A stretch of DNA of 63,669 bases, filler included, from Hausera hauseri (lineage: Eukaryota): the NCBI GenBank assembly GCA_046269625.1. It is 13 parts of 13 records of this genome, joined end to end, with 100 filler letters (N's around TTAATTAATTAA, not from the genome) between each part and the next. Parts side by side here need not be neighbours in the genome. Positions count along the whole stretch, not along the records: positions 29,329 to 34,436 come from JBJURY010333383.1; 12 more parts are not named here. One strand, given 5' to 3'. Shown piece by piece: positions 11,750-50,657 of the stretch. The notes beneath the pieces are model-generated. The model searched no databases, was not told where the DNA came from, and was given only the letters and a program-made list of their open reading frames with translations. A program made the translations under genes and the position numbers. Each line of letters starts with the position of its first letter. Within the stretch, counting starts at the first letter, position 1.

Positions 11750-11999
11750 NNNNNNNNNNNNNNNNNNNNNNNNNNNNNNNNNNNNNNNNNNNNTTAATTA
11801 ATTAANNNNNNNNNNNNNNNNNNNNNNNNNNNNNNNNNNNNNNNNNNNNGAGATGGAACGAAGATAATCTAAAAGACTTGCATGTTTAGTGTATTTATTA
11901 GTAAACTGTTATATAATAAAACTTTTATGTGTTTTGTGTTCTATAACAATAAAAACAACAAGTCACTGATTACAAGATTTATTATATTACAAATATCAT

Positions 12000-14267: not shown

Positions 14268-14369
14268 GTTCTTGTTTTTATATCTGAAAAATAAACAGTA
14301 AGGGTTACTCTTACAATAAACGAGGTTTTTAAAATTAAACCAATGACAGAATAACCCATTCTGTAGTTG

Positions 14370-15520: not shown

Positions 15521-16157
15521 ATGCAACACACAGAGTCGGGCGAAAAGTAATGAGCCTTCATTGATTGTAACAAAATAGTGTCTTTTCGTTTTTGTATCTC
15601 TTCGGCCGGTGGTTTATTTTCTGTTATAATGGTTTTCGGCTTAAATCCGCTCTTCCGAATTCCATATACATCTCCTAGCGTAGTTTCATCGTCCCACCAC
15701 TGAGTTTGTGTTTTCGGGATATAAGAAGCAATTAACGACAGTGTTAAAACTATGTGAACGTATGAGATCGGTCTGGCAATTATTGAAGAAGTTTTTATCT
15801 CACGTTGTCGTAAATTGTAATGTTTGTTGGGTCGTATATCTGTTTTAACGACTCTCTGTACTGATATGACCTCTTCCTTTCCATTCTTGTTGATATACGC
15901 CGTAGTTGGCATAACTTTAGTAACTTCGTACGGTCCTCTGCATGTACGAGTCAGTTTTAACGACATAACTTTTTAGCTCCTGGGTAATGTACATAAACCC
16001 TATTTACTTGTTCTAAATCGTGTGACTTTGTTTTTTTATCATATTACTTTTTAAACTGTTCTTGATATTCTTGCGATAATTCTTTGTCAATTTCCCAACA
16101 TTTTCATAGTCGCGTCGTAGCACTTCTGCAAAATTCTGATCTAAATATTCGGGGTTA
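15517..16157 (-). pseudogene. Gypsy integrase C-terminus (GPY motif) running into a signal-peptide-like segment; complex Gypsy copy A
   Basis: RGPYEVTKV..ISVQRVVKT followed by ISYVHIVLTLSLIASYIPKTQTQW. Clearly homologous at DNA level to 33830-34436. Confidence 0.85.
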
Positions 16158-20753: not shown

Positions 20754-21816
20754 GCGGAGCTCATAGAAAATGTTGTAATTTGGATTTCGGACAAACCTAC
20801 CGATACAAATTTCAAATGTTCTATTATAATCAGCCCAGAACCCAAGCCTATATAATTACTGAATTCTTAATAAGAATGTCTCAACGAAATTACACGAATC
20901 GAGCCAAGACGGATGAGATAATCCTAAATACTGACCCATTAAAAGGCTGTTAGATTATAACATTATAGGGATTTCCAAGGACTTAAAGAACTAATGTATT
21001 CGAATTGAGACCAAAATAGAACTGCCAAGAGATAGGCAAATTCCTGTCCGATTTATACCAGTGAACGCCTCGGTTCCTATTCCGGAGTATTGCTATATCG
21101 CACGACGACGGCTTACTGTGTCATATAGATTACAATTAGGACAAAACTACCAGTTACAGTTCGATCTGTTCAACAATTACTTTAAAGAACCGAGTACTTA
21201 CTTACGAGGATACCGCCCAAAAATCGGAATATGGAAGCTTCCATTTCCAACCACTACGAGGAAACCATTCACTGTTCCAAGTACAACTCTCACTACTGCG
21301 ATCGTCACCTCTGATGAAATGCTCAAAAAAGAACTAGGAAGAATACTGGTTACGATTTTGGCAAAAAATAATAAAATTCTATTTTACGTTGAAGAAACGT
21401 TAAACCAAGACGTCAAAATTAAATGTCACACCCTGCAAACCAATCAAATTATAATCCTAAGAAAGAATAGTCAGGGAACTGAATGCAGGTCATTACGACA
21501 GCAGCATAATTATATAGACCGAATAACCGCAAAGGGTAGGAAATCTATGACTTTTGCAGTGCGAACCCCAAATAACAAAATTGAAATAATGCAGTATAAA
21601 GAACTTAGTACCCAAAATGCGTTTACCACGAGAAGTTCTATTGAGTCGAACAATTTACCGATAATATCTATATTTGGTTTGTCAGTTTTTGTTCTTGTCA
21701 CCTTATCGGCGATGATTTTTCTAGTTTCCAAAAATTGTAATAAACGCAGTAAAAATCGAAAGGGAAATAAACGGGTAAAAGGGTGCCGAGACGAACTTTA
21801 TGACAGCATAACTTGA
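20754..21816 (+). CDS. Type I membrane protein of the complex Gypsy (copy B), 5' part broken
   Basis: 251-aa ORF with a Thr-rich linker (PTTTRKPFTVPSTTLTT), a TM segment (LPIISIFGLSVFVLVTLSAMIFLV), a basic tail and terminal YDSIT. Homologous to 14370-15520. Confidence 0.8.
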
Positions 21817-21822
21817 CAATTA
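21814..21822 (+). promoter_or_regulatory. Candidate stop-codon readthrough signal TGA-CAA-TTA
   Basis: Matches the CARYYA leaky-stop context. Copy A has TGA-CAA-CTA at 14372-14364. Both copies stay open in frame into the next ORF. Confidence 0.65.
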
Positions 21823-21921
21823 CAGATCAGGTTATCCTATCATCAGACAGAGAAAATGTTTTGTTTCAAAACAATAATCTGTCTTAGGATTGACCTTTAT
21901 TTTTATTTTAGCAGAGTAAGT

Positions 21922-24379
21922 ATGGCCGAAAAGGCGAAGAATTCAGCCATCAACTCCAGTCATGACATCGACGATTTCCTGCAACAACATGTAACATTCT
22001 TCAAGCCACTATCGAAAAGCTTATATCGTCAAATTGGAGAAAATCTGAAAAACAAAACTTATGTCGAAATCGATCAGGAAAGTAAAACACCAAATGGGTT
22101 GAAATGGAGTTTAAAGGAAAATCGACTGATTAGGCTATACGCAATGCAAAGCCCCAGAGATGCACAAGAATACCTCTTGAGAGATATGATTCCACATGAA
22201 TCGACATATTAGCAATTGTACATACATGTCGCTGATGGAAAAATTCAACACAGGATCGTAGGACAATCCTGGAGCACACAAAACGGACAACAATGGAAAT
22301 TTAGCACTTATAAGTTATATTGCTATAGTCTTATGAACTATGCTTTGGAATTCAGAATCTCAGAACTTTCAACCAAACTCATGTTCGAAATGACCTGGCG
22401 AATAGAAGTAATAAAACCGCTACCACCATTATTATGTATACAAAAGCCTTCAGAAGATGAAATAGAACAGAATGGAGAATCTTACAGACTAGTTCCAGAC
22501 GGCAGAAATACTTGAATTTTAGCCGTGAACTATGGAGAAAAGGGTGATGGATGATATACACCGATTGAAGTCTCTATTCGAAGCACAAACGGAGAACTTA
22601 TAAAAAAACAATTGCACCTAAAACTAGGGTGAAGGATACCTTTCCCGATCTCACTGGAATTACAAAAATACAATTTGAAAAGGGAAAAGATTTCTTGGAA
22701 ATCCAGGAAGATATAAGCCATTGCTTATATGGATGCATTATAACCGGATTCCGAGTGTACGAAATGTTAAAAAGACTAGGAATTAGACAAGAGTATATAG
22801 TCAGAATTCATGAACTGAGTCGAAATCCAACAGTTGTAAGTCAGGTAGAAAATACCTTAATGAGAAAAAGAGAATGTCTCCTTCCGTCAGCGTCAAGTGA
22901 ATCACAGTTCAAAATGACGCAAGAAGCCATGAATGATGAGCAGTTCAAATTTCCTAAATTGATGTCAGCAAGTCAACAAACAAAGCTTATAAATGATATT
23001 TATGTCGCACTACGATGGGAATATGAGCGGAAGCTTAGGAACCCTACACAAAATGTGATGTCAGACAACAATCCACGAATTTTAATACAAAAATTCGGAA
23101 AAGGATTTAGCGAATACCCAATATATATACAAGTTGAGCCTCAAGGACACAACAGATTTCAAGTGACTGTTTACAACAACTCAGTTAGAACGACCAGCAA
23201 CCAACAAAACCATCGATTAGCCAAGCCCAAAATGAAATAGAAATGGTTTCCAAAAGAGCAACAGGAAATCTGAAATCGAGTATCAGAGAAGTTCCGAAAG
23301 GACAAAAGACGAAGACTTCCTTCTTGGAGTATATTAGCAAAAAGAGAAGTAAAACCAGTAAGAACCTGGGCGAAGAAATAAAATCATCTGCTGGCCGCCC
23401 CATGCTCGACGAACAAGTAAACAGATCCAAGGAAAAACCCAAAAGGAAGGAGCCCGAGAATTCCGAGGGGATAAAGACGAGAACTGCCGACACAAAGTCC
23501 CGTAAGACAGAAGTAAACATTCTTAGGAAGAATTAAGAAGAAGATGAACCGATCATAGTAACGGAATTTGGCCAAGTAAAGGAATATACCAGAATGCTCG
23601 TCATGGCCGAATATTACAGCAAAGGCATGATCAAGGAAGCCATATTTTACGTATCCACTATTCCTAGGCGAATCGTAAGTGGAAACGGATACGCCCGGGA
23701 GGACGCAATCATTGGCAAATACTTAGCTCCAATATTCTAGTTGAAAAACGGTACCAATAGACTAACCATTCCGTTAGATACCCAAGTCCGAATACAATTA
23801 AAAAGGCAATATAAGAAAACCGGGATACCAGACTTAGACCAACAAAAAATCGTCGAATGGACGTCATTTACAGTGTCATATGACCTCAAGAAAGGTTCTA
23901 TCGACCTAAAACAAAAACGACTATATGGATACCTATATCAAGATAAAAAAGGATTAGTATTTGAACGAATAGAAATTGACGAAAATCTCGTGGACATATA
24001 TGGAGGAGAAAAAGAAGATTGCCCTGTTTGTGACGCCGATCTCTATGAAGGATTTGTGGTGCTGGACAATAAAGACTGTACTCACAAGTACTGTCAATAC
24101 TCTTTAGAAACGTAGACCCTGAAGAATGGGAAAACTACCTGCCCTGTATGTAGAGCTGAAGCCACAAGACTGAGATACTACGCCAATGGAGAAAATAAAA
24201 GGGTAGTGGAGATATTGCCCCCAAAACCTACTACATCCTACTACTTTGAACCGCAATCACCACAAGATGAATCAGATTTGGAAGCGGACTTACGTGGACA
24301 AAAGAACCGGTTACGCGGCACCTCTTCTGACGCAATAGGCACATCCGAGAATGCCGTTCAGGGAGGAGAAATGTTGTAA
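21922..24379 (+). pseudogene. Long novel accessory ORF ending in a RING finger (copy B), fragmented
   Basis: ORF pieces at 21856-22515, 22629-23240, 23243-23536 and 23741-24115. The RING reads CPVC..CTHKYCQYS..(W to stop)..CPVC at 24020-24151. The frame ends in the PPT/LTR (QGGEML-stop). Confidence 0.75.
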
Positions 24380-24913
24380 AATGGCCGTAAAACGTGAACT
24401 GTTTATATGTAAATCAAAACGAAACTGAAAAACGAAACCGAAAGTAAAACTGAAACTAAATATTTGACATTAGAAATTGAGAATGAAAAATTATTATTAT
24501 CCAGAATTAACCACTGAATGTGCAGGAAATCTGTAAATATGAAAATAGTTTATTGGAAAGGAGAATTATTGATTATTCCTTAAATAACGGAAAAATTAAA
24601 TGAAAATTGTGGAAAATTGTTTGTAAATAATAATTGGAAAATTATTGCTTTTGACTGCCAACTATATAAGGCAGTACAAAATCAGTTAACACGACCATAG
24701 TGAACATTGTGAAGTTTGAGTTGAACATAAATTAGAAGTTGAATTGAATTGAGCTATTGGAACAGCTCCGTTATCCAGATATTCTTGAAGATTGAATTTG
24801 TTCGAGCTATTGAAGTGCTCTACGATTTGGATATTCCTCGAAGGATTCCGCAGTTGAATTATTGAAAACTTGAAGCAGTTATTACTTATTAATCCGACGA
24901 CTATATCGTCTGG
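24360..24913 (+). repeat. Polypurine tract plus start of the 3' LTR of the complex Gypsy
   Basis: AGGGAGGAGAAA is immediately followed by TGTTGTAAA at 24372. Short repeats (GAAACTGAAA; GGAAAATT) and a TATA box (TATATAAGG, about 24663) follow. Confidence 0.75.
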
Positions 24914-25013: not shown

Positions 25014-25763
25014 ATTCGATAAAATGCTTCGTAGAGATGGTTTGTGTTTAGCAACAATGGACCGTCCGCCACCGGTTTGACCGAATTCTCGTTTATTAAA
25101 ACCCAGATTTCTTGACAATAGTTCATCAAAGGCAAAACATGTAACATTATCGTGTAGTGTAAACGAAATACGACCATCAGAATTTAATTAAAATATCTTG
25201 AGAGCCAGTTTAGTTACTGCTTTGATGGTTACACACAATTCTGCTTCCGTTTCCGTAAGAAAACCCATTCCTGTTGTATGAGAGTAAAAGAGTGATTCAG
25301 TCTTTTGCCAATTCACTGTAATATCGGTGGTTTTCGCAGTGGAAAAGTTCAATTTTTCACTAATTATACTCTGCCCACCGAGCTGTCGGATAGTGATTTA
25401 AATTGTAATTCAATCGGATGTTTGTGTTTTAGCACCAATCGATTGTTTAAATGAAAAATATAAACCGGGAAATATTGTCGTTTGTAATTGCGAACGTAAA
25501 ATGTTCCATTAGTCTCGAACTAACTGCAAACGACTAGATGCAGGAGATTGTCTTACTAGGGTATAGTATATTCCACTGTTCTCATGTACTGTTATTGGTG
25601 AAAATGTAAACGTGAATTCCGCCAAAGCCACTTCCCAGGCTCCCTGGCGTAAGTCGAACGGCTGGTCCAACGCCATGGTAAACCGTTCAGCGGTATTGTT
25701 ATTGTTGTTGTTGTCATGTTCTGATAATCTGTTACTATCAAGTATCAAATATGTGCTAATCAC
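25014..25763 (-). pseudogene. Polinton/adintovirus minor capsid (penton-like) protein, partial
   Basis: YLILDSN..NTAERFTMALDQPFDLRQGAWEVALAEFTF is the typical N-terminal pattern of Polinton minor capsid proteins. Confidence 0.7.
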
Positions 25764-26810
25764 TCAATCTGTGATGCAAAAATCCAACTCGGTGTAGTGT
25801 ATCCGTGCCACTTGACGAGATATTGTTTATTCGAACCTTTGCCGCGTGAACGTAGAATTCCCTGAATACGATACACATCAGGTTTTTCCGGTAGTACTTG
25901 CAGTTCCTGTTCGTAAAATTTGCCACGTATTTCGTCACCATTTTCATTTTCTAAAACGTACATAACCGGACTTTGCTTTGTGTTGATTGTTAAAATTCGG
26001 AAAACCTCATCGTTCCAGTTTTGATTGAAATTCTTAGTGAATGGCGTCGTACTGAGCTTGGAAATACGTACATAATCACCGATTTTATATTTTTGGTGAC
26101 GCTTAATCGCCTGTCGTCTTCGTTGTGTTGTTCGGTTGTTTTGATAAAGCCACATGTTTAAATCATCGATTACGTCAACCGGCTGTAATCCATTGATAAC
26201 ACGGCGTGTCGAATGATTGTATGAATTAATAATATCCGGTAGTACATCTATTCAGCGTTTGTTGCCTTGCTTCGTAAAGAATTTGGTTAGGCGACCGCAC
26301 AATGTTCGATTAAATCATTCAACGAGTGCAGCCTGGTATTGGGAAAACACCGAGTAGTGGTTTACGCCGAACTGTTTCAAGACTGTTGCAATGTGGGCGT
26401 TGTAAAATTCCTTACCCAAATCCGTTTGTAAGTTCTTCGGTTGTTGTTGTTGTTGCATCAGCGTCTGAACAGCGTCGGCAATCTCTTTACAAGATTTAGA
26501 TTTCACGGCAATTGCACGTGCAAAACGACTAAACACAACAAAACATGTGAGCACGTACCGATACCCATCATTGATGTTAGCGTACGGAATCATTTCCATC
26601 AGATCCATTTGCAATACATTATTTACACCGGCAGCACGATATGCACGAGTTGGAAACCGCCTTCTTATCGGTTTGTTTAGTCTGTATGCTAACTGTTTCC
26701 CGAACCAATGTTGGGTCTGTTACCGAGTCTGTTTGACGGTCTTTGCCAGTTTGTCGACGCCAGTATAGCCGACGGGATGACGCGGGTCGAGCCACACATC
26801 GCCCATCGTT
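25760..26810 (-). pseudogene. Polinton retroviral-like (rve) integrase with C-terminal chromodomain
   Basis: DPRHPVGYTGVDKL, QMDLMEM..YRYVLTC..FSRFA, LQTDLGKEFYN, YKIGDYVRISK..FTKNFNQNWNDEVF and QYLVKWHGY. Confidence 0.92.
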
Positions 26811-26962
26811 GTAGTCGTCGATTGTGTCGGTTTTGCTGATGCTTGCATTACAACAATGAGAACGAAACGTAAATGAAATATTCGGTAAACTGGGACAAAA
26901 AGATGAAAACCATGCACCCATATCGCCGAATCATCACATACTTACCGTCATTGTTTATACTA

Positions 26963-27346
26963 TCATGTTGTTGCAGAACCAATGAGTCCACCCACTAATG
27001 ACGCGACAATCGGTAGAATTGTGCCAAGGAATCTACCGTCTTGCTGGTACATAACCTCTCGTTTCAGTCGTTTACTGCGGGTGTTGGCAAGGCCAATGAG
27101 TGGTTTTCGATACTTTAGTAAATTCCGCTTTCCACTACCAATGTCAATGTGACCCACGACAATATTGTATAAAATTTCCATCAAATCGTCTATTACAAAC
27201 TGTGGGAATGATCGCAGCATGTGTCGCTTATGTCTCGTAGGTGCCTTGAGCAAACCAATAAAGTACGGTTGACTACGTTTGAATCGCATGCTTTTTTGTG
27301 GACGTATTGATGTTGATGAGATGTATTTATTTATAACCGTTGCCAC
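26963..27346 (-). CDS. Polinton/adintovirus small conserved protein with amphipathic C-terminus (pX-like)
   Basis: EILYNIVVGHI..QQDGRFLGTILPIVASLVGGLIG is a variant of the GGFL..L..L pattern usually found next to the Polinton ATPase. Confidence 0.65.
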   Translation of the reverse strand: MATVINKYISSTSIRPQKSMRFKRSQPYFIGLLKAPTRHKRHMLRSFPQFVIDDLMEILYNIVVGHIDIGSGKRNLLKYRKPLIGLANTRSKRLKREVMYQQDGRFLGTILPIVASLVGGLIGSATT

Positions 27347-27507
27347 TTTGACGGTAATTTGCGTCTACTTGCTGCTGCTGTTGTTTGAAGCACAGAATTG
27401 ATTAATCGCTTCACTGTAGCAGTTCGTTTTGATACACGTTACTTTCCGGACACCCGCTTGGTAGTAGATTGTTTACGTTTAACAAATGTTTTTCGGAAAT
27501 TCTTCAT
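27331..27507 (-). pseudogene. Small basic Lys/Arg-rich Polinton ORF with one internal stop
   Basis: MKNFRKTFVKRKQSTTKRVSGK*RVSKRTATVKRL..RRKLPSKWQRL. Confidence 0.35.
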
Positions 27508-27544
27508 TTTTTATCATAATCATGTAGTCGATTTTCGAATTTGT

Positions 27545-28170
27545 TTATATAACACATACACCACCTTTCTGATTGAAAATATCTGTGCGTATACGCATGT
27601 CATCGGGATACTGTTGTGTAAAGTCAATGAGCAAGTATCCGTGTGGTTCGGTCGTAGCATCATGATATGCATCTATCAAGTAGGCCTGATTGTGAAGAAA
27701 TGCTTGTCGTGCAACATAATCAATGATAGTTTGATCACGGCGATTTCTGAACAACACCAAATAGTGTACGTTTAGATTTCTTGTTCGATGCTGCCCACCC
27801 TGATGGAATATTTTTTGCGTAATGAAAATAACCGTTACGCCACGGTGTCGTGCAATCTTCGTGAACAGGTTGTTGAAATCCTATTGTTTCGAGGCTTCTT
27901 GAAATAAATCGTCAATGACAATAACGTCACCGCTGCGTAATCGTTCAGACCAGTTCTTATCAGACCCATCAATTACCGTTATCGATTTTAGTTTACAAAA
28001 TTCCCCATGTGTCAAACCGGACTCACCATCATCGCAAACACCCTGATGCTAGTAAATGTGATTGTACCGCGGTAAATGGAACATGTCACGGTAGTTCTTC
28101 AATAGTTTACACACAAAGTGTGTTTTGCCAGTTTCACTGGGGCCTACAATCTGGAAAATAGCATCATTCT
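27545..28170 (-). pseudogene. A32/FtsK-like DNA packaging ATPase of a Polinton
   Basis: Walker A in IVGPSETGKTHFV, Walker B in VIVIDDL, plus VLFRNRRD..DAYHDATTEPHGYLLIDF. Frameshifted. Confidence 0.92.
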
Positions 28171-28276
28171 GCAGCTTTATCAAATAATAATACAACCTTT
28201 CCTCATCACATGATTTGTTTATAATCATTTTACACTCGCGCATATAAATAGTTATAGTATAAACACTGTTTCCATA

Positions 28277-29080
28277 ATGACAGCTAATATCAATTATCTC
28301 GGACATGTTGCTAGGTGGTGTGAAATTAACACCGTACCTTTTATTCCGTGGAAGCCGCCGGATTTTACATGTATCCTATTTCAATCGGGAAAGTGTCGTA
28401 TTATGGGCTGTTGCAAACTAATCACATCTGACAACAGTAAACTGCTGCCATTCGGAATTGTCATTGACAAAATCCAATCAATAACGGTAAAGACTCAGTT
28501 AGACTACCACCAAACAATTAATCTGTACAAATTATCAATGGCCGCTGCTACTGAATGTACGTATGAAGCCGAATTGTTTCCTGCACTGAGATTGACATCG
28601 TTTTGCCCACTTTGTGTCAATGCGTTTAGCAGTGGAAAAACTGTTGTACTCGGTATATGGATAGTGGACTATGAACCGATTATTAATCAAATTAAAAATC
28701 ACATAAATACTTTACTGAATCAAAATAATGTACATGGCACAACAACAACAAACTGTAAATACCATTCCCATGCCCATTCAGACATTACTGCCATGGAAGA
28801 TGACGCCAAAACAATTCTACTCAATGATGACAATGATGCCAATGATGATGATGATGAAAGTTCAGATTGGTCGTGGTTGTTTGGCTACAACAAAAAGGAC
28901 GATTCTAATGTCAAACTGCTAGAACCACTTGTCCAACAATTAGAAAAGCAAGGTGATTGTCTGCAGGCCGATTGTCTGGAAACAAAGCAGGAACTTGCTC
29001 GGAAAGCAGCAGCAAAACCGACGTTAAAAAGGCAAAATGCAATGATTGGTGGACTACGTAAACGAAAATCAAAATCGTAA
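28277..29080 (+). CDS. Divergent TATA-binding-protein-like protein with an acidic/basic C-terminal extension
   Basis: Two TBP-like repeats: TCILFQSGKCRIMG, and IQSITV..INLYKL..YEAELFPALRL..VNAFSSGKTVVLG. Compare canonical LIFSSGKMVCTG and YEPELFPGL..IFVSGKVVLTG. Confidence 0.8.
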   Translation: MTANINYLGHVARWCEINTVPFIPWKPPDFTCILFQSGKCRIMGCCKLITSDNSKLLPFGIVIDKIQSITVKTQLDYHQTINLYKLSMAAATECTYEAELFPALRLTSFCPLCVNAFSSGKTVVLGIWIVDYEPIINQIKNHINTLLNQNNVHGTTTTNCKYHSHAHSDITAMEDDAKTILLNDDNDANDDDDESSDWSWLFGYNKKDDSNVKLLEPLVQQLEKQGDCLQADCLETKQELARKAAAKPTLKRQNAMIGGLRKRKSKS

Positions 29081-29328
29081 GCGTCGCGGCAAACACAGAT
29101 ATTTTTACCGAAACGAATTTTTCGCAAGTACGAAATGCATTTTCTGCAAATGCCCGTACTGATTTCATTGAATGATCCCGTGTCTCTATGTGTACCCAAG
29201 TACAACTTTCGTGTAAAACGGATTTCGGNNNNNNNNNNNNNNNNNNNNNNNNNNNNNNNNNNNNNNNNNNNNTTAATTAATTAANNNNNNNNNNNNNNNN
29301 NNNNNNNNNNNNNNNNNNNNNNNNNNNN

Positions 29329-30262
29329 CCCCAATAATTCCCATGAGAGATGGAATTTTCGGTCGAGTTACGGGAGAGGTATTATTAACTTATGAATGCG
29401 AAAAGAGAGATGTACCCATCAGCGTTGAAGAAAAACGTTGCATTCAGGAACTTCCCGTTATTTACCAAACTACTCCAAGGTTAGCTACACCACTGACAAG
29501 AGTGTTATTGGATAACGCTACCCAACCAACCATCCTTAAAAATTGTAAAGCAAGCTTAGGAGAATTCATGTTTAGACATAGCGAGACGGACTGGGTCAGC
29601 TTACCAAATGGGAGTATTATTGCTGCTCCAAGTAAATTGACAGGAACAAATCTCGCGAAAGGAAATACCGACGATAAATTTCAAGACACCTTATCGAAAG
29701 GCATATACGACAACGAACACACGAGCTAAATCGAGCCATAGCATCAGTAGTAGATGATACACGATACCAGGCTAAATGGGAATCTTTACTTGGCGTAAAT
29801 CATTATCAGCGAGTAACCACAGAAATACTCTACAAAATTTGGGGAAAATTCTTAATTTTTGAACAAGCCGCATCCGGATTTTTAGCGATATATTTTTTGA
29901 TACCAGCTGTAATTAATGGGTATGAGATATTTACGTTGACTGGATTTTCTTGCAAAATACTGACTGCGATCGTAACACCCTTTGAAAGATTCTTAAAGGC
30001 ATACAAAGAAAACAGATGGAAATCGGACGTAGAACGTCATGTCGGATATTACAATCGTAAAGGAAGAAGAAGACCTATATTTCTGCGGAAGCGGAAATTT
30101 ACAAAACATAATACGCGAAGAAATGATTCAGACGATGACGAGCCAAAGGGAGGAGAAGTATTTTCGGGAATAAATAAATATAAAGCCTATTCGGTTATTA
30201 AAGCGCCACTACCTATGTTGCCTCCTACTGCTACAACTTATGAGGACTGCGACAAACGATAG
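29329..30262 (+). pseudogene. Class III (chuvirus/Jingchuvirales G-like) fusion glycoprotein, C-terminal part; env-like
   Basis: GIFGRVTGEVLLTYEC..RCIQELPVIY..LATPLTRVL..C..F..W, then a TM segment and the INGYEIFTLTGFSCKILTAI block that resembles chuvirus G tails. One frameshift. Confidence 0.75.
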
Positions 30263-30532
30263 GTGAGTTCCTATCAGACAGAGGTTTATAAAAGAACGAT
30301 TAATGTAGAAGACCCTTATGAAGGAACGAAACGATAGGGGATCCTGCGGAAAATTTGTTACCGACAATCTACCGACGGGCCAAAGATGCTATAGTCTCCT
30401 AGAGAGCCCAAAAATATAGAGATTAGGTCAAAGGTATGGGACAATCCAAGGTTGAAAACTTTTTAAAATACCGAATTACATACTAACAATCGAGAACCAT
30501 TAATTAGTACACACGAGACGGCAGAATTCTAT

Positions 30533-33500
30533 ATGGAAAACAATGAATTATATCCAAATGAAGAATTGAGACATTTATCGGAGAACATGGTATTCTCCCC
30601 AGAGATCCGAATAAATGGACATAAAATATCGGCAGTAGAACGTTCGAAAGATACATTGAAATGCTTGGGTACAGTAATAGAAGGAAGGCCTTTCGCCAAA
30701 ATCATTATTAAAGATTGGGAAGTCTACGCATTAATCGATACAGGATCCGAGATGTCTTACATAAAAAACGATTCAATTCCTAAAACGCTGAGAGGACAAT
30801 TGTACCCACCGTCCACAAAAGATCCACGAAGTACAGGAGCTTTTGGCCAAATGTCTAAACCTATGTTTAAATGGAATCCAGAAGTTCAAATAGTTGGATA
30901 ATTTTTCCACCACGAATTTGCAGTTATGGAACCATTAACCGATGACATAATTTTAGGATGTGATCTACTGAAAAGACTACCGAATATAGCAGTTGACTTG
31001 CAAACAGGGAAATTGATAGAAATCAGAACAAATAAAGGCGTGAAAAATGCTAAAGATAGAAAATTTGGAGAGGTCTGGATACCAGTAGATGAAGATATTC
31101 CACCAAGAACAGAGTTAATAATTTACGCACAAATTCAGCAAGATGACGATCAACCAGTATACTTTGAACCAAGAGAGACATTAAATCCAAATATAATACT
31201 TAGTAACATACTGACAAGAGTACATTCCGGTCGTGTGCCAATAAGAATAGCTTACAATGCACCAATCCCCATTAAACTCTATGCTTATACTACTCTAGGA
31301 GATACGTATACAGTGTCATCAATAACTATTCAAGAGAAACCTTACAAGTATGCCGAAGTTCCACCTCATGTCGAAACTAAGTTTTCTCCCGAATCTTATT
31401 GTCGATTTTATGAATTATTATTTTACTAAAAATCGATCATCGTTAAAGACGACGAAGATATCGGTAGGACAAAAACATTAAAGCTAACTATTCCTCTAAA
31501 TAAAAAGCCAGGTTCGAATGAAGAAATAGACATTGAGGATCAAAAGACGCCGAAATGGTATCCTCCACCACATTCGTTAAGACCTGAGATAACAAAGGAA
31601 GTCGAACGAATACTTAAAGCCGATATAATCAGGCCCAGTTACAGATCTTGGTATTCATCAATCCTCGTGGTTAAAAAGAAAGGTACCACAAAACATCGAT
31701 TTTGTTTTGACTACAGAGCTTTAAACAATCTTATGATGAAAGACTCTTTCCCATTGCCATCAGTAAAAGAAGCTTTAGATAGACTCTCAGGCGCAAAATG
31801 GTTTATTACTCTGGACTTACAATCCGGATATTGGCAAGTGGAAATTGAAGATGAAGACCGATATAAGACAGCATTTAAGACGCACGATGGTGTATATGAA
31901 TTTAACGTCATGCCGTTCGGTATTACTACCAGGCCAGCTATATTTAAAGGATGATGAATAAGATGTTAATGGGACTGGATCAAGCTTTTGCGTACTTAGA
32001 CGACGTAATTATAGCATCAAAAACGGAAGAAAAACACCTAAAGCACATTGAACACACTAATGCGTCTGGAGCAAGCCGGATTGAAATTAAACCCAAAGAA
32101 ATGCAAGTGGGCACAATTGGTAGTATACTACCTTGGCCATATAGTTGGAGAAGGAGGATCGAAACCGGATAAATCATTATTAAGTAAAATATCAGATTGC
32201 ATGGACCCGCAAAACCAAAAAGAATTAAGGCACTGGCTAGTATTATGCGGTTATTATGCAAACTATGGGTCAGATAATTCAAAGATAAACACACCCCTAT
32301 ATTGTTTACTTAAAAAAGGAATAAAATAGAAATGGACGGACGTCGAACAAAAAGCTTTTGGTGAGATGAAGAAGATATTAACAAGCGAACCCGTTTTACG
32401 ATATCCAGATTTTAGCTTACCTTTCATAATCAAGACAGACGCCAGTAAGGAAGGCATCGGATAAGAATTAGCGCAGAAGAGAGATGATGAAGAATTAGAA
32501 CGCCCGATTGCTTATGGAGGACGATCCTTGAAGAAGGCCGAGAGAAACTACTCTGTCACCGAGTTGGAAACTCTAGCCGCAAAAGAAGCACTTCGCCACA
32601 TCAACGTTTATGTATACGGGCAGAAAATTATAATCGTTACCGATCACAAGGCCGTTACGACTTTGAAAGGCCGGGCAAATAATCCGACATGCAGACTTAA
32701 CAGACGGATTGAAGAAATATCAAGATACAATACCAAATTTCAATATAAGCCAGGGAATAAACATGTAGACGCGGACGTATTATCGAGATAAAAGACCAAA
32801 ACCAGCGCAATCACTGTAATGCAAAAGAGTCAACTTGAAGAAATAATAGACCGACAACGCGCTTTAACAATGGATAAGGTCATAAAAATTTCAAGGGAAC
32901 AAAGAAAGGATAAGGTCATTCAGCAGATTATAGAATTTGCTAAGAAGGATGTCATACTGAAAGGACGACAGCTTAAGAAGCATTTACGCAGACACGGACA
33001 TAAATACTGCATCTTAAACGACAAGAATAATGAGAATATTTTATATTACGAAAGGAAAGGAAGAAAATTGATAGTTATTCCAAAAGGGTTATGAACCGAA
33101 GTATTGATGTCAGAATACAATTCATATTTAGCCGGATATATGTCCTGGAAGAAAACGTTATAGAAAATAATGAGCAAATATTTTTGGCCTAATATGTATA
33201 TTGACGTGAAGAATTAAGTACATGCATGAGAAGTATGTGCAACTAAACTAAAGAAGACGAAAAATTACATAACTGAATTAAAACCAATTGATGAAGCCGA
33301 TAGGCCCATGCAAGCCATGTCGATGGATATTGTAGGACCTCTCCTTACAAACCGTAAAAATAACAAGTATATCTTGACGTGTATCGATCGACTAACTCAT
33401 TTTGTCGAATTTATAGCATTAATCGATCAAAGGGCTGAAACCTTAGCAGAAGCCGTAGTAAGAAGACTTATTTACCGATACGGACCCCCAGTTAAGGTGC

Positions 33501-34140
33501 TTACAGATCGAGGAAGAAATTTCAGCAGTAAACTTTTTGTGAAGATTTCCAAAATACTTGAAATCGAAAGGTTGACGACTACTGCTTATCATCCTTAATG
33601 CAATGGAATGGTCGAGCAAATGAACGCTACCGTCAAACGTGTATTATCTACGGTAGTAGCCAAAGATCAGAAAGATTGGGATGAGTTTTTAGAAGGAATA
33701 CAATTTGCAATTAATACTACACCACACCCGGCGACAGGATTCACACCAATTTTATGATGTGTGGACGTAAAGCCGTATTACCCACAGATTTAGGAATGAC
33801 ACCATATACGGTCAATCTTGAGGACTTAGAACAAAATTTTGCAGAAGTGTTACAGACACGATTACGAAAATGTTGGGAGATCTCTAAGGAGTTATCTCAA
33901 GAATATCAAGAGCAGTTTAAAAGATAACATGACAAGAATGCAAAACCGCACGATTTAGAACAAGGAAATTGGGTTTATGTACATTATCCAGTAGCTAAAA
34001 AAGGTACCTCATTAAAATTAATTCGTACCGGCAGAGAACCGTACGAAGTCACCAGGGTTACGCCAACTACAGTGTATATCAACAAAAATGAAAAGAAAGA
34101 AGTGGTATCAATACAAAGAGTTGTAAAGACGGAGATACGG
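30533..34140 (+). mobile_element. Ty3/Gypsy pol (PR-RT-RNaseH-IN), decayed; complex Gypsy copy C
   Basis: ALIDTGSEMSYI; RFCFDYRALN; LDLQSGYWQV..KTAF..VMPFG; YLDD; TDASKEGIG..NYSVTELE..VTDHKA; SMDIVGPL..LTDRGRNF..TTAYHP. Confidence 0.96.
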
Positions 34141-34436
34141 CCCAATAATTTACGCCAACGTGAAGTAAAGACTTCTTCAATAATTGCTAGACTAATATCG
34201 TACGTTCAGAGAGTTTTGGAATTATCGCTAATTGCTTTTTGCATTTTAAGAACACAAGCGGAATGGAAGCATAAAGAACCTGTCGTAAAAGATAATTACA
34301 GAATTAAGAAAAATGAGGCGAGGTGGGAGACTCTTAAAACGGGGAAGACACTGACAGTGGAAGAAAAGCAAAGATAAGAAGATGTCAGATTATTATAGTC
34401 AATAATAATAAACTATTATTCGCCCAACTCCACATG
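34140..34436 (+). CDS. In-frame post-integrase signal-peptide-like segment and start of the membrane protein
   Basis: LRQREVKTSSIIARLISYVQRVLELSLIAFCILRTQAEW matches copy A. Confidence 0.7.
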
Positions 34437-34559
34437 NNNNNNNNNNNNNNNNNNNNNNNNNNNNNNNNNNNNNNNNNNNNTTAATTAATTAANNNNNNNN
34501 NNNNNNNNNNNNNNNNNNNNNNNNNNNNNNNNNNNNTTCCCGCTTATTAGTTTTAATCT

Positions 34560-36400
34560 CTATACTTATAATATATGGTTGTTTTCGTCTTAGGTCTCTT
34601 CCAAGAGCTTAAAAATTTTCGTGCGGCTGAAAAGCAGAATTCGTCATCTTTTGTTAATGGCAAGAGTAATTGTGCACATTCTATTCGACTAGTTAATGGT
34701 AGTGACTCATATTGTCGTAAGGCATTTCATACTTCATTAGATGCTGAATCAGACATTTGTAATTTAGCTTCAATTACTTTAGTTATTGATTCTAGAGGTT
34801 CATCGTATATTATAGAACCTGGTGGTATATTCATTTCCGGAATATCTTTTGGATTTTCGATTGATGATAGTGTAGTTCCAGGATACTGGAAAATATCCGG
34901 TTTAGGTATGAGTTCATCGTCTTCTAAGATTTCAAATATTTCATCATCATCAACTACTTGTAGTTCCTTCTTGGATTTACTTGGCTGTATTGAATCTCAG
35001 ATACTTTCGAATAATGTCGGTTGTTGGAGTGGAACCTTTGGTTGTAAAAGTGGTGCAACTAATCTATCGTTATAAGGTTCTATCCATTCTCCAGTCGGTC
35101 TTGTTCTGACAAGCTCATGTGAATATTCATCAGAGTCTATATCAGGACGTCTTTGAGCAATTGCTTCGATTACTGGAATTACTCTTGCTTCCTCAGTTTT
35201 CTCGAGTTTTTGTATTGCTGGAAAAGCTACTCGTAATGTCTTCTGACTCTCTATTATCCATGGTATATTGTATTCTACTCGCACAGTTTTTAGGTATTCA
35301 TCTATGCATCTTTGTGCCATAATTTCTGAATTATGACCATGGTATAGATCCAAACCTTTGTAGGTTCTGTTAGTCTGTTCCAGGTCGTAGATGGCGGTTA
35401 GATTTACTGGATTTATTCTCAATGTATTTAATAGTTCCGGTAACTGGCGTCCGATGATTACTTTTCCTGGTAAGTATTTGTTCATGAATTTACTTACTGA
35501 CTCTTGTCGTTGAGGATTAAACCGTCTACTGTATTCAGTGTACTTTGTAGTATCTGGTATGTTTGGATACACATGAATATTAAGGATTGTTTTACCTCCT
35601 AGGTTTTTGGCAATTACTTGGGTAAATCCTTTCTGGTTTCTTTTGGTTATGCATCAGCAGGCAAGAATTATTTCACTATTTTGTGTTACAGGTTTATCCA
35701 TGGTTATCTTCGGTGTTTCCTTAAGCCATTGTATTAAGCATATAGGATAATTATCTAAAGGTTCAATTTCACAATCTCCTTCATAAGGATAATTAGGAAA
35801 TATCATAGTTTCTTTTGAAATAATTACTGTTTTATTGTTGATTTGTAACCGTGCCTCTCCTTAGTTAGTAATTACAGCACATGGCGGATCGTTTCTTTTA
35901 AACTGAATATCTGTTTCCTTCAAATGCAGTTGTTTAAATAACCATGGTAAATTTATTTCAACGATAAGTTTTCCACAGAGCAGTTGTCTAAGGTTTTCAT
36001 AACATTTTTCTTTTTCTAGGTGTACATTGTCTAGCTCAATTATCAAATCACCTTCGATGTTCTCTATTCTTATTCGATTAATTTCTATCTCCTGCTCATC
36101 TTCGATAGTTTTTTCTACTTCTACAAAGGTTAAAAGTAAATTTTTAATTTCTTTAGTTTCTGTCCATAAAATATATGGGCGTGTATTATTTTGGATGTCT
36201 GGTACCCTTCGTTCTGCTTAATCCAAGTAATTTCTAGTTATGAAGGGCTTTTCCCAAATGGAAATGTTGGATGATGGTTTGGATCAACTTGGTAATGTTC
36301 TACTATTGGTTTTTCCATTAATAAGCCCGTGAAGGTTGGTTTAGTTTGTTCATTGAAAGTTACCGAACGACGGGGTGAGACGTTCCTTTCGTCGTTACTA
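34560..36400 (-). pseudogene. Long unknown ORF (about 600 codons, broken) downstream of gag
   Basis: Pieces at 35861-36046 and 34997-35572 plus an acidic continuation to about 34560. No protease motif was seen. Confidence 0.5.
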
Positions 36401-36499
36401 TTTTTTTATTATCTGAAGAGTTTCCTTTTTCTTTTGTGGAACTGTTATAAGATGGCATTGTTGAGTCCAACTTTCTTTCATTTAGGTACTTAGAATATT

Positions 36500-38155
36500 C
36501 CGCTGTCGTATTTCTACCGTATCTGGATGGGGAAATATTTCTATTTATCGGTGAGTCATTTGGTCTGAAACTATAATCTGCGTTTGATTAGTGCATAAAG
36601 GTGTTTCCTCTATTCGGGTTGCCATTCGTCGGGTATATTCTATCAGCTTATTAATACTATTTGCTGTGTGGAATTTGACTCCTTCTTGTAAAGGTGGTAA
36701 AAGTCCAAGTACAAATTGTTTCATGATCATGGCGCCAAAAGCGTGTGCGCTCGGGCCAAAGTATCTATTCATTGCTGTTTTAAATCTATTAATATATGTA
36801 AATACTTCTTTATTTGGTTTTTGTTTACAATTTTGGAATTTTAAATATCGACTATCTTGTATGTTTACATTTTAATTTTGTAAAATCCTTTCTCGATGTG
36901 CTCAAGTCTCGTCTGGTCGTCTAAGTAGGCAATTTATTGCCATTCTCAAATCATTAGTCACATGCACTGGTTAGAGAGATATTTTCTTTGCGTCATCCCA
37001 ATGCATAGCTGTTGCCAGTGAACCATATCAATCTAAGAAATCCTCGAAGTCTGATACTCGCCCTTCATATGGTTGAAGGGGAGAAATCATTTGGTATTTC
37101 TCTTCTCTTCTTCTTTCATTGAAATTTAATAAGCCGTAACCGGCATTGTTATTTGGATCACAGTTGCGCTCATCCTGGTGAGCCAACGGGTCTTGGTTAT
37201 TCCTTAGCGGCTCAATGTTGTTGCTATCGATGTCCGAAGTTTCATAAGATATGGAACTCTGTTCCGTGGAAAACTCTGGTGATTGTATTCCTTCCTGCCG
37301 TCGAGTTATCATTTCCTCTGTCCATACTTGTTCGAGACGTTCATTTAATTGATTTATACCTCGGGTTAACGTTTCTATTTGATTTCTGGTATGATTATTT
37401 TCCACTTGTATTTGCTCTCTTTCTCGCATACTATAATTGAAACTTGATTTTGTATTTCATTTAATCGTCGACTAGCTTGTCTTTTTTTGTTATCAATCTG
37501 CTCTCTATTTCTATGTACTGTGGCTATATTATCAACAGTCTGTTGTTGTAAATTATGTATGTCTGGAATGGGTATTTATATTTTGTGCAAGTTGGTCAGT
37601 TCTCTTTTCCAATTCGTTTAAGCTTATGTTATTATCGTTCACTTTCTGTTTTATTTGTGCAATTCTCTCTTCGACTCTATCCAATTTTATACAATTATTC
37701 GTGGCATTTGTCACTATTGTGTCATCTACTCCTTGTCAAGGTATATCTTGTATTTCTCTAATTAACTGTCGAATACTATCGTCCGTCTGATTCTGTTTTA
37801 TTCTTAAATAATTTACGTTTACTTGATGTATTTCGTATCGTGTTCGGCAGTCTAATTCTTGATTAATTATTCTCTGTGTTAACTGTCTTGGATTAGGCTT
37901 GTTGCGATATTGTCCTCTGAGTGGCCTTCGTCGCCCACTAACTCCTCGTACCCACTGGTGTTGTACTGGAGCGGGATATAATTGTAGTGAATCAATGTCA
38001 ATTAATGATTCTGGAGTTGATATTGTACTTAAGGTGTCTGAACTGTTAGCAGAACTAGTGTTTTCTTCGTTTGAATCGATTTCATTAATTCCTGTTAATT
38101 GATTCTGTGTTAATCGTCCTCGGGATAGGGTATTGTATTGGTGTCCCTGAACCAT
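36500..38155 (-). pseudogene. Retrotransposon gag with a long coiled-coil N-terminal extension
   Basis: ISPLQPYEGRVSDFEDFL..AMHWDD, YINRFKTAM..KQFVLGLLPPLQEGV (capsid-like). Upstream Gln/Arg/Glu-rich helical ORFs. Confidence 0.65.
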
Positions 38156-38224
38156 TGTTATTAAAAAAAATTACGTTATTATCCATCTTATTATATGTAT
38201 ATTGTACAAATTTTTTCTATGGAT

Positions 38225-38345
38225 AATTCACACAGTACATTTCGATAACGTAGAATCTTTAGGAACACAGTTTTTACAATGAATAATGTGTCCGCATGGT
38301 AGGTAAATTGAATTTGATTGATTTTTCTACAAATTAAACAGGTAC
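38225..38345 (-). pseudogene. C3HC4 RING finger (IAP-type) remnant upstream of gag
   Basis: CLIC-(frameshift)-NSIYLPCGHIIHCKNCVPKDSTLSKCTV-stop; the stop replaces the last Cys. Confidence 0.7.
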
Positions 38346-38828
38346 AAATTATACGGCCAACATATGTACATCTTTTTCCACTTCCTCCTCTTTTTCCTTT
38401 AATATTGAAACCAAGTGTTGAATTCTTTGATAATAGTCGTCATCCGTTAATTGCATTTGGTATATATTGGTAATCATTTTTGGTAATGCTTCATATTCAG
38501 CCTTCTAGTCAATTTTAATAGCAATCATCGTGAGGTCTTTGGTGTATCCTAGCTCGATTACTTTATTGAGTACGGGATTATTATACAGTTTGTATCATCC
38601 ACAAATTATTTCAGGCGGTTGATTCTTTATTGTAAGTAATTGGGTTGTCCTATTGCTGAGATTGGTCAAAGTCATACTGTTGGTGTCCAATAATTCTATA
38701 AACAAATTTGTTCAATTTTATTACAATANNNNNNNNNNNNNNNNNNNNNNNNNNNNNNNNNNNNNNNNNNNNTTAATTAATTAANNNNNNNNNNNNNNNN
38801 NNNNNNNNNNNNNNNNNNNNNNNNNNNN

Positions 38829-46513: not shown

Positions 46514-47771
46514 TGTAGTGTTAGCATCTTTGTGGATGGAACTTTTAAATATAAAAAGGACAAACATGTAAACACAGTCGAACAAAACGATTGAAACAAA
46601 CACTGATAAGAAGAAAAAAACAATGAGAGTAATTTTTATTCAGTTCTCGCAAATCGTCCGCCGAGACGTACGATTCCTCGGTTCAGGATGGTGCCGGGTT
46701 AATCCACGGATTTTTGCGCGGGCAAGTCGGAACGTCGTCCGAACTGGAATCGGTTAATGTTGGTTCAAGTCTTGTCGGCTCCAACCGGCGTCGACGGCGC
46801 GGTACGGGAACTTCGTCTGGGCTGGAGCTGACTGTCCTAGAATGCGGCTTATCAGCGGTTCGACGGTCAGGAATCAACTGTCTCTCCGATGGAGCCAGCG
46901 ATTCGTAGAGGCGTTCGGCGGCCGCCACCAGTCTTAAGAAGACCAGCAAGGAAACCGACGAGTCGAAAAAAACGCCGATTTTCCCCGTCCTCATAAAACC
47001 TATGGAGTATTCCACAGGGTAAAGAATAGGGGTCGTTCCGTCCCAGCCTGGTTAAGTGCCGTACGAAGCGGCTCCGTTGCAGTAGCTCCCGTTCCGTCAG
47101 AAAACCCGAGTAGGACCGGTACGCAGTTCGCTTGCCGGTGTTGCGGCGTCATCTTTCTCAGGAGGCGGTATCTCGCCGGATCAGGCACGGCTGGTCAGTC
47201 TTGACTGTCGAGGTGGTACGCCTGTCGGTATTGGTTTCTTCTTCGGCGTGTGTGGGTCGGAGTACCTTCGGGACTCGGTATCCCGGATTGATAATGTTCT
47301 TTTCGTCACTAACTGTGGAGTCTAATTTAACGGCTGCATCGGCTGGTAGGGCCCTTGTGTCGTCTCTAACGATTGGTTCGCCGGGTTTCGCTGTTCTGGT
47401 CGTGTGAGTCCTCATTTCATTGCTACCACCAGCGATATCGACTCGTATTGTTTTCGTGCCTTCTTTGGTGATGGATACATCGTTTTTCGATAACCTGGTT
47501 ACTGTGTTCGACATTTCTGGCATGTTTGGGGATATCTTTTGAATAATACTAATTCTTTGTGAACTGTGGATTTAAGCAAATGGATGTGAATCCACAGATT
47601 TTGAATGTTGATAATTTTTGCAAGTGCTGGTCACTTCGGCACTTGTAATCCCGATTTTTAATTTTTCTTTTACTTTTTATTTTTGTGCATACTTGGAATG
47701 AATCCGTGATATTAAGTGATTTAGTTTAACTTACATAAATTAAATGTTTTTATGTAAGGTGGAACCTTACA
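46514..47771 (-). repeat. Putative 1.26-kb 5' LTR (TGTAAGG...CTACA) inserted into another Gypsy RT
   Basis: TG..CA ends, a following PBS, and a start exactly where the RT frame ..RPCGDYRQLNTITTMDA breaks. Confidence 0.65.
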
Positions 47772-48720
47772 GCATCCATTGTTGTTATGGTATTTAGTTG
47801 GCGGTAATCACCGCATGGGCGAAACGTGCCATCTTTTTTGGAACCACATGTAGTGGTAAAGACCAGGGTGATTTTGAAATTCTGATTATGCCTGATTTTT
47901 CCAGTTTGAGGAACTCAGCCTCCACTGCCTCTCTGCGGGCGGACCTTTTGTCGTATTGGTTTTTAATGTGCTGTTACTATGTGATAAAAGGTGGATTGAG
48001 GTGGTATGAATGATTTGTCCTTTTGCAACAGACGCGTGCAAGACGACGAAATGTATTGCTGTAGATCAGAAGGGAACGATGAAAAGTTATCCGATGGTAT
48101 AGATGCATCGTGACTGGATGCAATTGAGGTATGAGTTATAGACGAGGTGGTATTTGGTGCAGGATGTTCGTGTTGAAGATGATGTTGGAAGCTATGCTAT
48201 TAGTAATAGGTGCCACGCAGTTGGCAATATCTTATTTGTCACCGTAGTAAAAATTTCTGTATAATGAGTAATTATAAAAATAATTTAGGTCGGAAGTCGT
48301 TTGCTTCAGTATCGACTTGTTGGAGGCGATCGTCCGGGTGGTCATCGAAATGCATTTTAAGGAACATTGTTTGCAATCTACAAGTAAAATGTAGTGTGAC
48401 AGAAAATCTGAACCAAATATAGATGTGCGTACATTGGCTACTGTAAATTTCCATGTGAATGTGTTTGGGAGGTGTGGAAGAGTAAATGTTAATTTGGCAA
48501 CTCCACAAATTTGTAAAAGTTCACCGGACGCAGTAAACAGTTGCTTTTGTGAAGTGTAATTGTGTTGTATGTGTTGTATTGGTGGCAGTAGAGAGATTGC
48601 TGCACGGGTGTCTATAAGAAAGTTGATGCTTTGCATTTTTGGAGTAATGACTGCTGCTTCCAACGTGAATACAGCAAAGGAAATGTGTCGGCTGTTTCTG
48701 CAGGTTGTTACTGTGGTGCC
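47772..48720 (-). mobile_element. Gypsy protease and RT start, same family as 5960-10260
   Basis: FLIDTRAAISLLP..FTWKFTVANVRTSIFGSDFL; SPWSLPLHVVPKK..RPCGDY. Confidence 0.88.
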
Positions 48721-48729
48721 CACATTGCC

Positions 48730-49066
48730 TCACGCAAAATAGCAGTCAACAGAAGACACCGTTGTATTGAATGAAATATTCGGTCCATCCAAAATAATTC
48801 CCTGTGTCCAAAGAGTGGATCTATTCACCAATGCTATGGTATTTTATCTCAATGAAACGAAAGATCCGTTTAAGATACCGTGGAGCAAACAACAACGTTC
48901 TGTAAGAACTCCATCTTTTATTTTTTATTGCTAAATATCAATACATTAGAAGCCCAGTCGGAAAATCATAATTTACATTGCATTGGGAATACTTTCCGCT
49001 GTGATTATACTCGTTGGTAGTGTTTTGTGTTACAGGAAGAAATATAAAGGATTTGAATTTAATCGG
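48730..49066 (+). CDS. Host exons encoding a single-pass membrane protein C-terminus
   Basis: A short GTAAG..TTAG intron, then KIIIYIALGILSAVIILVGSVLCYRKKYK. Confidence 0.45.
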
Positions 49067-50657
49067 GTATTGATTTTGTTATATTTTAAATATGCGTAAA
49101 ATATTACACACTCGACTTACTAACGCAGATCATAAATTTAAAATCCATTTGTCCATGGCATTTTATTGCTACAATCACTAAAATACTGGTCGATTAGCAA
49201 ACCCCAGGCAAGAATAGGTCTACGTTTGGTCTCATGGTTCGCCGCAAATTATTAGAATTACATAGGGCGTCGGTGTCTTCCTTTTGTTTAGCCAGTCTCT
49301 AAGACATCCATAGTTAAGGTGAAAGTTATCTTGTTTTAGATGACCCACTGCAGATATTTATGGGTTATTTAAAGAAGGAAGCTAGCAGTTTAAACTAGTG
49401 AAGAATGACTAATGTAGGTGTGTGTAAAATTCTAGCAAGACAGTAAGTTTCTATAATAATCAACATAGTATCATTCAGCGGATACTATGGTTACTATGGA
49501 AAGTGTCGTTAAGGGCTGGACACATTGAATGAAACTTACTGTATAATTCAATTGATTCATTTAAACAAAATTAAGGAATATTCTAGAAGACCATGGAAAT
49601 GTAAAATTTGCTAACAGTGTTCGTCCTCCGAGTTTTGTTATCTTGTCAATAATCATCAACTTCAGTTAGAATGCTCTGGCGAATGGGATTTAGAAGATGG
49701 AGTTTTTAGCCGGGTGAATCCGGAAATTTTTATTTTTATTATTTACTTTCAGTTTTTGAATCGTTCTTTTACCTTAAGCTCCGAGAATCCCGAAGTGAAA
49801 CAAATGTTCATTTTATTTCGACAGATGACAAACTCGAATTAGATTTTTGAAATATTCACTTATTATTTAGCTAGAGCAATGGTGTGGAACGGTTAAAACG
49901 AACATGTTTTTATTTCATCATTTGGGGTATGTAAAGNNNNNNNNNNNNNNNNNNNNNNNNNNNNNNNNNNNNNNNNNNNNTTAATTAATTAANNNNNNNN
50001 NNNNNNNNNNNNNNNNNNNNNNNNNNNNNNNNNNNNAAATGTAATAGCTTACAAGTCGAATACTTACCTATTCGAACTCGAAAACTCGGTCAAACATGCA
50101 TTACTCAAAAAATCTAATGACGTCATTCGATTCCCCATGGTCGAAAACCTATTTGAATTTGGCCGCGCCTTTTATTTAATTTAATTGATGCATTAAAACA
50201 AAAGCGCATTAAAACCAATCAATAAGCGAAGCAGCACATGGTGATATGACTATATTTTTCATTATTTCCAATCTCACTTCAACGAATGCCGAGTTTTTTA
50301 ATTGTGCTGCTCAAATAATTGGCTGATTTTAGATGTGCAAACTTTACAGCGAATATTTGGCTCAAATCCACGAGCCGGAAAATTGTCACAATGTTATGAA
50401 GAAGAACTTTGGCCATAGGTACAACAGGGTTCAGTATTATATACGCCCTACATGTGAGGTTGTGTGCTAAATAAATTATGAAGACTTTTACAATGTCGAT
50501 AAACAGCACTTAATTTCCTTCACCAAGTCGAAAAAACAATATACCAATATGCCAATAACTGTTTCATGCCAAAGGAAAATAGAGGGTGCAGCTCATGTGT
50601 ATTGCACATGTGTAATAAACAAGCCCCAGAATTGCCATAATTCAATGAGGAGTTATT

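Follow-up and report, generated by a model that had tools for sequence, protein, structure and literature searches.

A Ty3/gypsy element of Hausera hauseri whose integrase frame runs into the putative signal of a second, predicted FN3-like membrane protein

Three contigs of Hausera hauseri carry pieces of a single retroelement family: C at 29329-34436 (+), A at 11850-16157 (-) and B at 20754-24913 (+). Positions refer to the window, the whole stretch of 63,669 nucleotides that was analysed (assembly GCA_046269625.1), in which 13 separate contigs of 4-7 kb are joined by 12 artificial spacers of the form N44-TTAATTAATTAA-N44, the first at 4417-4516 and another at 34437-34536, so that adjacency across a spacer is meaningless. 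All three copies are decayed, none of them being intact from the integrase core to the transmembrane (TM) segment; contig C starts inside env and ends at 34436. The ectodomain and the downstream ORFs are common to A and B, with 26-44% protein identity. Besides, one public run contains 33% of the sampled words of contig C, and 17,508 contigs of that run align to C at a likeness of at least 80%, thereby indicating that the family is abundant and diverse. Among the listed runs that share words with contig C, none is an RNA dataset.

Pfam places on C, in this order, the last part of a fusion protein of chuvirus/gB type, protease (PR), reverse transcriptase (RT), RNase H and integrase (IN) (Table 1). 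The env tail and the protease are both in frame 1, with four stops between them in this decayed copy, and a frameshift near 33750 together with a stop at 33925 separates the integrase core from its tail. Between protease and RT lies an insert of about 100 residues that has no match in Pfam or the PDB. The PR-RT-RNase H-IN order and the gypsy-type domains assign the element to Ty3/gypsy (Metaviridae), and the closest relatives of its pol are gypsy polyproteins, with identities of up to 36%. In addition, a Monjiviricetes_fusion match above the cut-off lies upstream of the protease, as in the gB-type errantiviruses of GAG-ENV-POL layout, which occur in nematodes, bryozoans and flatworms (PMC13524379).

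Table 1. Positions of the element's features on contigs C, A and B, in window coordinates.
Feature	Position	Strand	Remarks
C: gB-type (class III) fusion protein, C-terminal part, basic tail	29331-30073	+	Pfam Monjiviricetes_fusion E 5e-8, 7e-8
C: hydrophobic anchor of gB-type fusion protein	29849-29914	+	
C: border motif 1, ISAV	30626-30637	+	19 residues before protease match; likely protease site
C: aspartic protease	30683-30979	+	Pfam RVP E 8e-6
C: border motif 2, VSSI	31313-31324	+	before RT; likely protease site
C: RT and RNase H, decayed	31670-32728	+	stops; short frameshifted piece near 31955-32040
C: border motif 3, TSAI	32801-32812	+	right after RNase H end; likely protease site
C: integrase (zinc-binding part, core, GPY/F-type tail to NLRQRE)	33077-34164	+	
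C: border motif 4, TSSI	34171-34182	+	between integrase tail and signal; likely protease site
C: internal signal-like sequence	34186-34260	+	predicted cleavage after TQA
C: mature second membrane protein, start	34261-34436	+	cut by contig end; z 14 vs copy A
A: integrase tail, TSSI motif (15781-15792), signal	15703-15972	-	
A: ectodomain (three FN3-like domains), Thr linker	14373-15702	-	stops, at least 3 frameshifts
A: TM	14472-14504	-	tail ends YDRIT
A: T-rich splice-acceptor-like site before the next ORF's ATG	14265-14305	-	best of 118 YAG sites
A: accessory ORFs	12552-14267	-	26-44% identical to those of B; no Pfam family
B: ectodomain, Thr linker	20756-21813	+	frameshift near 20940, stop at 20992
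B: TM	21661-21726	+	tail ends YDSIT
B: T-rich splice-acceptor-like site before the next ORF's ATG	21890-21924	+	best of 115 YAG sites
B: accessory ORFs, common to A	21922-24400	+	RING finger near 24017-24154

At the 3' end of C, positions 33928-34374 form an open frame of 149 codons, the two remaining frames holding 12 and 11 stops. This frame reads through the integrase tail, NLRQRE (34147-34164), KTSSIIAR, a hydrophobic stretch (34213-34248) and TQAEW. A matching run is present in copy A at 15520-15972 (-), where it shares 60% protein and 79% DNA identity with C, and a 9-base in-frame indel distinguishes the two copies. The integrase-signal junction is real in copies C and A, as had been claimed in a first-pass annotation of the same DNA, according to which the integrase tail continues without a stop into a hydrophobic stretch in both; the GPY-type tail of that description is found in A, whereas C reads EPY. 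Residues identical between C and A number 8/8 at the junction, 33/44 in the integrase tail, 12/20 in the signal and 13/41 beyond it. In C, the sequence from the GPY/F motif to the signal contains no Met, and in A none follows the KVM stretch. Stops occur in C at 34375 and 34396, and the Thr linker, the TM segment and the tail are all absent before the contig end.

The bases in which copies differ carry a mark of selection. Of the bases compared between A and C, 21% differ, mostly silently on both sides of the junction, which suggests that the fused form was replicated under selection. The differences of other copies in run X1 were also considered, of which at least 40 are listed and 39 fall within 33996-34220; among these 39 listed differences, 29 are synonymous (24/30 in the integrase tail, 5/9 in the junction and signal), and three of the four residue changes in the junction and signal increase hydrophobicity. 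Both alternative frames acquire stops from the same listed differences. The junction frame itself acquires no stop from them, and no indel is listed in this interval. Taken together, these differences indicate that the second membrane gene is real and under selection. The depth of run X1 contigs over C falls beyond 34260.

A complete view of the second protein is provided by an outside relative. With copy B as the query, a HMMER search of 1.84 billion representatives matched two proteins, P0107 (E 5e-39) and P0108, both singletons from ENA assemblies. P0107 is an unbroken protein of 479 amino acids with, in one frame, a signal, an ectodomain, a Thr-rich linker, a TM segment and a tail ending in YDRIT; P0108 is a C-terminal part and ends in YGRIT. 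P0107 is 62% identical to the signal of A over 47 residues and 45% identical to that of C over 49. A hand-made score combining the hydrophobic core with the -3,-1 rule places the top cleavage site at the same position in C, A and P0107 (2.97, 2.77 and 3.0, respectively), the best value among 117 sites of the pol frame being 1.97. The stretch after the integrase thus behaves as a signal peptide by this score, in agreement with the first-pass annotation, and hydropathy together with the same score gives P0107 the cleavable signal, single TM segment and cytosolic tail of a type I membrane protein. The continuous path from signal through ectodomain, Thr linker and TM segment to a YxxI tail, previously read in both C and A, is borne out in P0107 alone: C stops short of the linker, and in A the path is interrupted by stops and at least three frameshifts. 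Likewise, of the two tails that had been assigned to these copies, YDRI does belong to A, whereas YDSI belongs to the third contig, B, which lacks a start, begins inside the ectodomain and has no junction.

The sequence YxxI-T-stop is kept in 4/4 sequences, the tails of A and B being otherwise unalike (z -0.8), and fits the YxxPhi type of sorting motif. The DNA likeness of A and B extends about 30 bases beyond the stop (14330-14385 (-) and 21800-21860), so that part of the conservation of the tail may lie at the DNA level. These conserved bases are followed by the T-rich acceptor-like site and the next ATG, possibly reflecting a short intron or a cis signal, an arrangement that would resemble complex retroviruses.

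The N-terminus of P0107 reads MLDDSMGNN-M-ARPISY, with a Met exactly where the homology starts, and neither the integrase tail nor the border motif described below is found in frame upstream. The fusion is therefore not common to the whole family, and the comparison indicates that the second-protein module also exists unfused or else that the P0107 copy is frameshifted. Word-index protein searches with the copy B ectodomain and the junction, which cover long candidates only, gave no match; no relatives were found among viral contigs, nor any significant match in PDB sequence searches. Two metagenome loci were matched and rejected, both being a bacterial DEAD-box helicase reached via one shared 8-residue word. 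One bacterial contig reached by such a false match (L002) carries two tandem protein-kinase-like ORFs at 4192-7718 (-).

An AlphaFold2 model of P0107, built from this protein and three further rows after exclusion of a misaligned one, is of low confidence (mean pLDDT 52). It shows a helical stalk, three beta domains of seven strands each at about residues 77-142, 191-258 and 327-398, a Thr linker that is disordered and a single TM helix. With Foldseek, the top solved match is fibronectin FN7-B-8 (E 1.6e-8), with low TM-scores since the orientation of the domains is not modelled, and the listed rows are what we take to be proteins with FN3 arrays, such as gp130, Tie2, contactins and receptor phosphatases. 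With VIA, domain 3 matches fibronectin FN6 (Z 9.0, rmsd 2.2, 76 residues aligned) level with an Ig-like protein of de novo design (Z 8.8), domain 1 being barely probed. Both comparisons find the seven-stranded FN3 sandwich in this model of mean pLDDT 52. At the sequence level, domains 1 and 2 are repeats of each other (z 10), and domain 3 is weakly related to domain 2 (z 2.7) and not detectably to domain 1. No Pfam family exceeds its cut-off, fn3 being seen on P0108 only with E 0.12. Env families are absent from the Pfam matches, and the listed fold matches of the pLDDT 52 model are FN3 or Ig-like sandwiches; within the limits of so uncertain a model, this agrees with the earlier statement that the protein resembles no recognised env class. 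With moderate confidence, the model points to a type I membrane protein of FN3-like build, in which no fusogen can be recognised. The fold search also led to the rejection of a CUB-like reading made by eye, the model gives no support to a VWD domain, and the Atlas leads (this VWD domain and Ig-like viral glycoproteins) all score under 0.9. A single-sequence fold of copy B (pLDDT 34) was set aside.

How such a protein might be released from the integrase is suggested by a short motif. Between the env tail and the end of contig C, a span of 1587 residues, [IVT]S[SA][IV] is present at four places, each of them a domain border; 0.21 occurrences would be expected from composition and 0.44 from its frequency among 103 distant relatives, the pattern having been noticed before it was counted. 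None of the 103 relatives has four occurrences, and only 2/66 have the motif after RNase H, so that the pattern is particular to the element of C. Since the three ordinary borders alone define the identical pattern, the fourth motif, at the integrase-signal border, amounts to a prediction borne out (chance about 0.7% for 25 residues). Ty3-type proteases cut at such borders. The occurrence of the motif at four borders of the polyprotein thus makes it likely that the element's own protease frees the integrase from the signal. The first-pass annotation had proposed release by signal peptidase; the signal-like behaviour fits this part, but signal peptidase alone would leave the integrase tied to the membrane, and a likely site for the viral protease precedes the signal.

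Our preferred reading, which we hold to be somewhat better than even, is that the integrase frame runs into the signal of a second type I protein with three predicted FN3-like domains and that the product is cut twice. The first cut would be made by the element's protease just before the signal and the second by signal peptidase just after it. The enzymes would be made on the cytosolic side, held between the anchor of the gB tail and the signal until the protease frees them, and the second protein would travel to the surface of the cell or to the envelope of the particle, with its YxxI end possibly serving as a sorting signal. At the internal signal between C and prM of flaviviruses, the viral protease cuts on the cytosolic side and signal peptidase on the luminal side; flaviviruses are unrelated RNA viruses, so that this is an analogy only.

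As to the job of the second protein, adhesion or targeting beside the gB-type fusogen is the likeliest candidate, although it falls a little short of an even chance; a role as attachment partner, as put forward in the first-pass annotation, is plausible. With the same processing, the protein might instead be a captured receptor-like accessory gene acting on the host cell as a decoy or as a modulator of signalling or sorting, which we regard as rather unlikely. In its favour, FN3 arrays followed by a TM segment and a Tyr-containing tail resemble the ectodomains of cytokine receptors and adhesion proteins, weak Atlas leads point to the immunomodulatory glycoproteins K1 of KSHV and E3 of adenovirus (scores 0.82-0.83), a RING protein is among the neighbours of the second membrane gene, and apoptosis and ubiquitin domains are reported in Burro (PMC6431247). 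However, fusion to the Pol polyprotein would make such a protein in step with the particle proteins.

Downstream of the second membrane gene, A and B share at least three accessory ORFs without a Pfam family, one RING finger being seen in B. From the acceptor-like sites that precede them, these ORFs are likely spliced. The strong site before the next ORF in both copies makes it likely that the element splices, and splicing is the rule for the env of insect errantiviruses (10.1101/2023.08.03.551782). The second protein could then come mainly from a spliced subgenomic mRNA, in which a start codon further upstream is joined to an acceptor just before the signal in the manner of Drosophila errantivirus env, the shared integrase frame being secondary. 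A YAG does lie at 34189 in C and at 15774 in A, exactly at the start of the homology with P0107, and would leave a signal of normal length. Nevertheless, this YAG has 9/14 pyrimidines compared to 11 and 12 at the clear acceptors, at least 8 pyrimidines are reached by 28 of the 136 YAG sites on C, silent-site conservation at the junction YAG is not clearly higher (6/8 vs 19/33), and splicing would leave the protease-type motif and the integrase end unexplained. We consider splicing as the main route unlikely, though still a serious rival, and the spliced and polyprotein routes may coexist. Finally, it is quite improbable that the in-frame fusion arose by chance during decay, through loss of a stop or start in an ancestor of A and C, while the working element keeps a separate, P0107-like ORF: the sole unbroken sequence is indeed unfused and every copy in the window decayed, but the divergence between A and C is mostly silent, the eight junction residues are identical and the fourth motif matches the three other borders.

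The window holds other relics. The contig next in the window carries at 34570-38728 (-) one long frame, likewise decayed, that comprises a RING finger (E 0.004), a coiled-coil-like stretch, a weak match to gag (E 0.014) and 600 residues without assignment; it may represent the 5' portion of a Burro-like polyprotein. A Polinton-like relic with an integrase, a chromodomain and an NTPase-like match on the minus strand occupies 25014-29228, and the same contig has a TBP-like ORF at 28214-29077 (+) (Pfam TBP, E 3e-8). Positions 371-1842 and 50649-54109 are related relics (65% DNA identity) that look by eye like protein-primed DNA polymerase B, with an endonuclease VII-like match at 51997-52329. Mutually related, ordinary Ty3/gypsy relics, in which no env was seen, lie at 5900-10100 (-) and 47700-48730 (-), a piece of a Tc1-type transposase at 56952-57395, and an exon of a host methyltransferase gene at 60351-60776 (-).

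In the light of known systems, parts of this layout are familiar. The gB-type errantiviruses share with it the Ty3/gypsy PR-RT-RH-IN order and the gB/chuvirus-type fusion gene upstream of pol, but a second membrane protein after the integrase is not described in the text of that survey (PMC13524379). The survey, by Chary and Hayashi, did not seek other ORF layouts (PMC13524379), and the word "fibronectin" has no match in its text or in the searched portions of seven supplementary files. The giant planarian element Burro / GYPSM1, 25-30 kb long with a polyprotein of about 5000 aa, similarly has its Env in frame upstream of the protease, in one polyprotein, as well as RING and accessory domains; in the section of PMC6431247 on these elements, however, no post-integrase membrane protein is described, and Burro has between PR and RT a dUTPase-like domain, of which none was detected in C. 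In Atlas virus and related nematode belpaoviruses, one Gag-Pol-Env frame carries an attachment-like GN and a fusion protein GC after Pol, released by cleavage (PMC9094657). They differ in belonging to the Belpaoviridae, in their class II fusogen and in having both glycoproteins in tandem after Pol (PMC9094657), whereas in the element of C, Pol lies between the fusogen and the FN3-like protein.

Closer in kind are some of the distant gypsy polyproteins, 103 of which were screened, 95 with a locatable integrase core and 24 with tails of more than 300 residues. A hydropathy screen flagged three, of which two are real integrase-signal-Env-TM fusions and one, P0106, was dropped as a chimeric annotation; P0006 was added by eye among six tails, giving an integrase-signal-Env fusion in 3/95. 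In these three (P0008, P0011 and P0006), the frame of the integrase tail likewise continues through a hydrophobic signal into a membrane protein, but there it is this downstream protein that looks like the fusogen, and an upstream env is absent. Two of them have rhabdovirus-G matches that are weak and below the cut-off (E 0.002 and 0.0009), and P0006 is F-like by eye. The three are intact, with gag, pol, chromodomain, signal and Env in a single frame, two of these Envs being rhabdovirus-G-like. The fusion as such, put forward in the first-pass annotation, is thus real in C and A, but it is neither universal, given P0107, nor unprecedented, given Atlas virus and the 3/95 relatives. From the sources cited, neither fusion is new alone, env before pol being known from Burro and Gag-Pol-Env from Atlas virus. 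The combination of an FN3-like membrane protein after the integrase with a fusogen before Pol, and with likely spliced accessory ORFs including a RING finger further downstream, was not found in the literature searched, which included the text and supplements of the survey by Chary and Hayashi.

The gB-type fusogens of herpesviruses require separate partner proteins for cell binding and for the triggering of fusion. We tentatively suggest, as an idea that is still on the unlikely side, that the element represents a two-glycoprotein entry lineage, in which Pol would be preceded by a class III fusogen and followed by a dedicated FN3 attachment protein, all in one polyprotein with Pol held between two anchors until the viral protease frees it, and whose sister lineages would switch between the fused and the free-standing form. 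Being no recognisable fusogen, the second gene would be missed by Env-centred searches. From the repeated border motif, a testable processing map can be drawn for a polyprotein in which two membrane proteins flank Pol, and a further surface protein encoded in that polyprotein is a concrete candidate for how the Envs of gB-type errantiviruses find their target cells.
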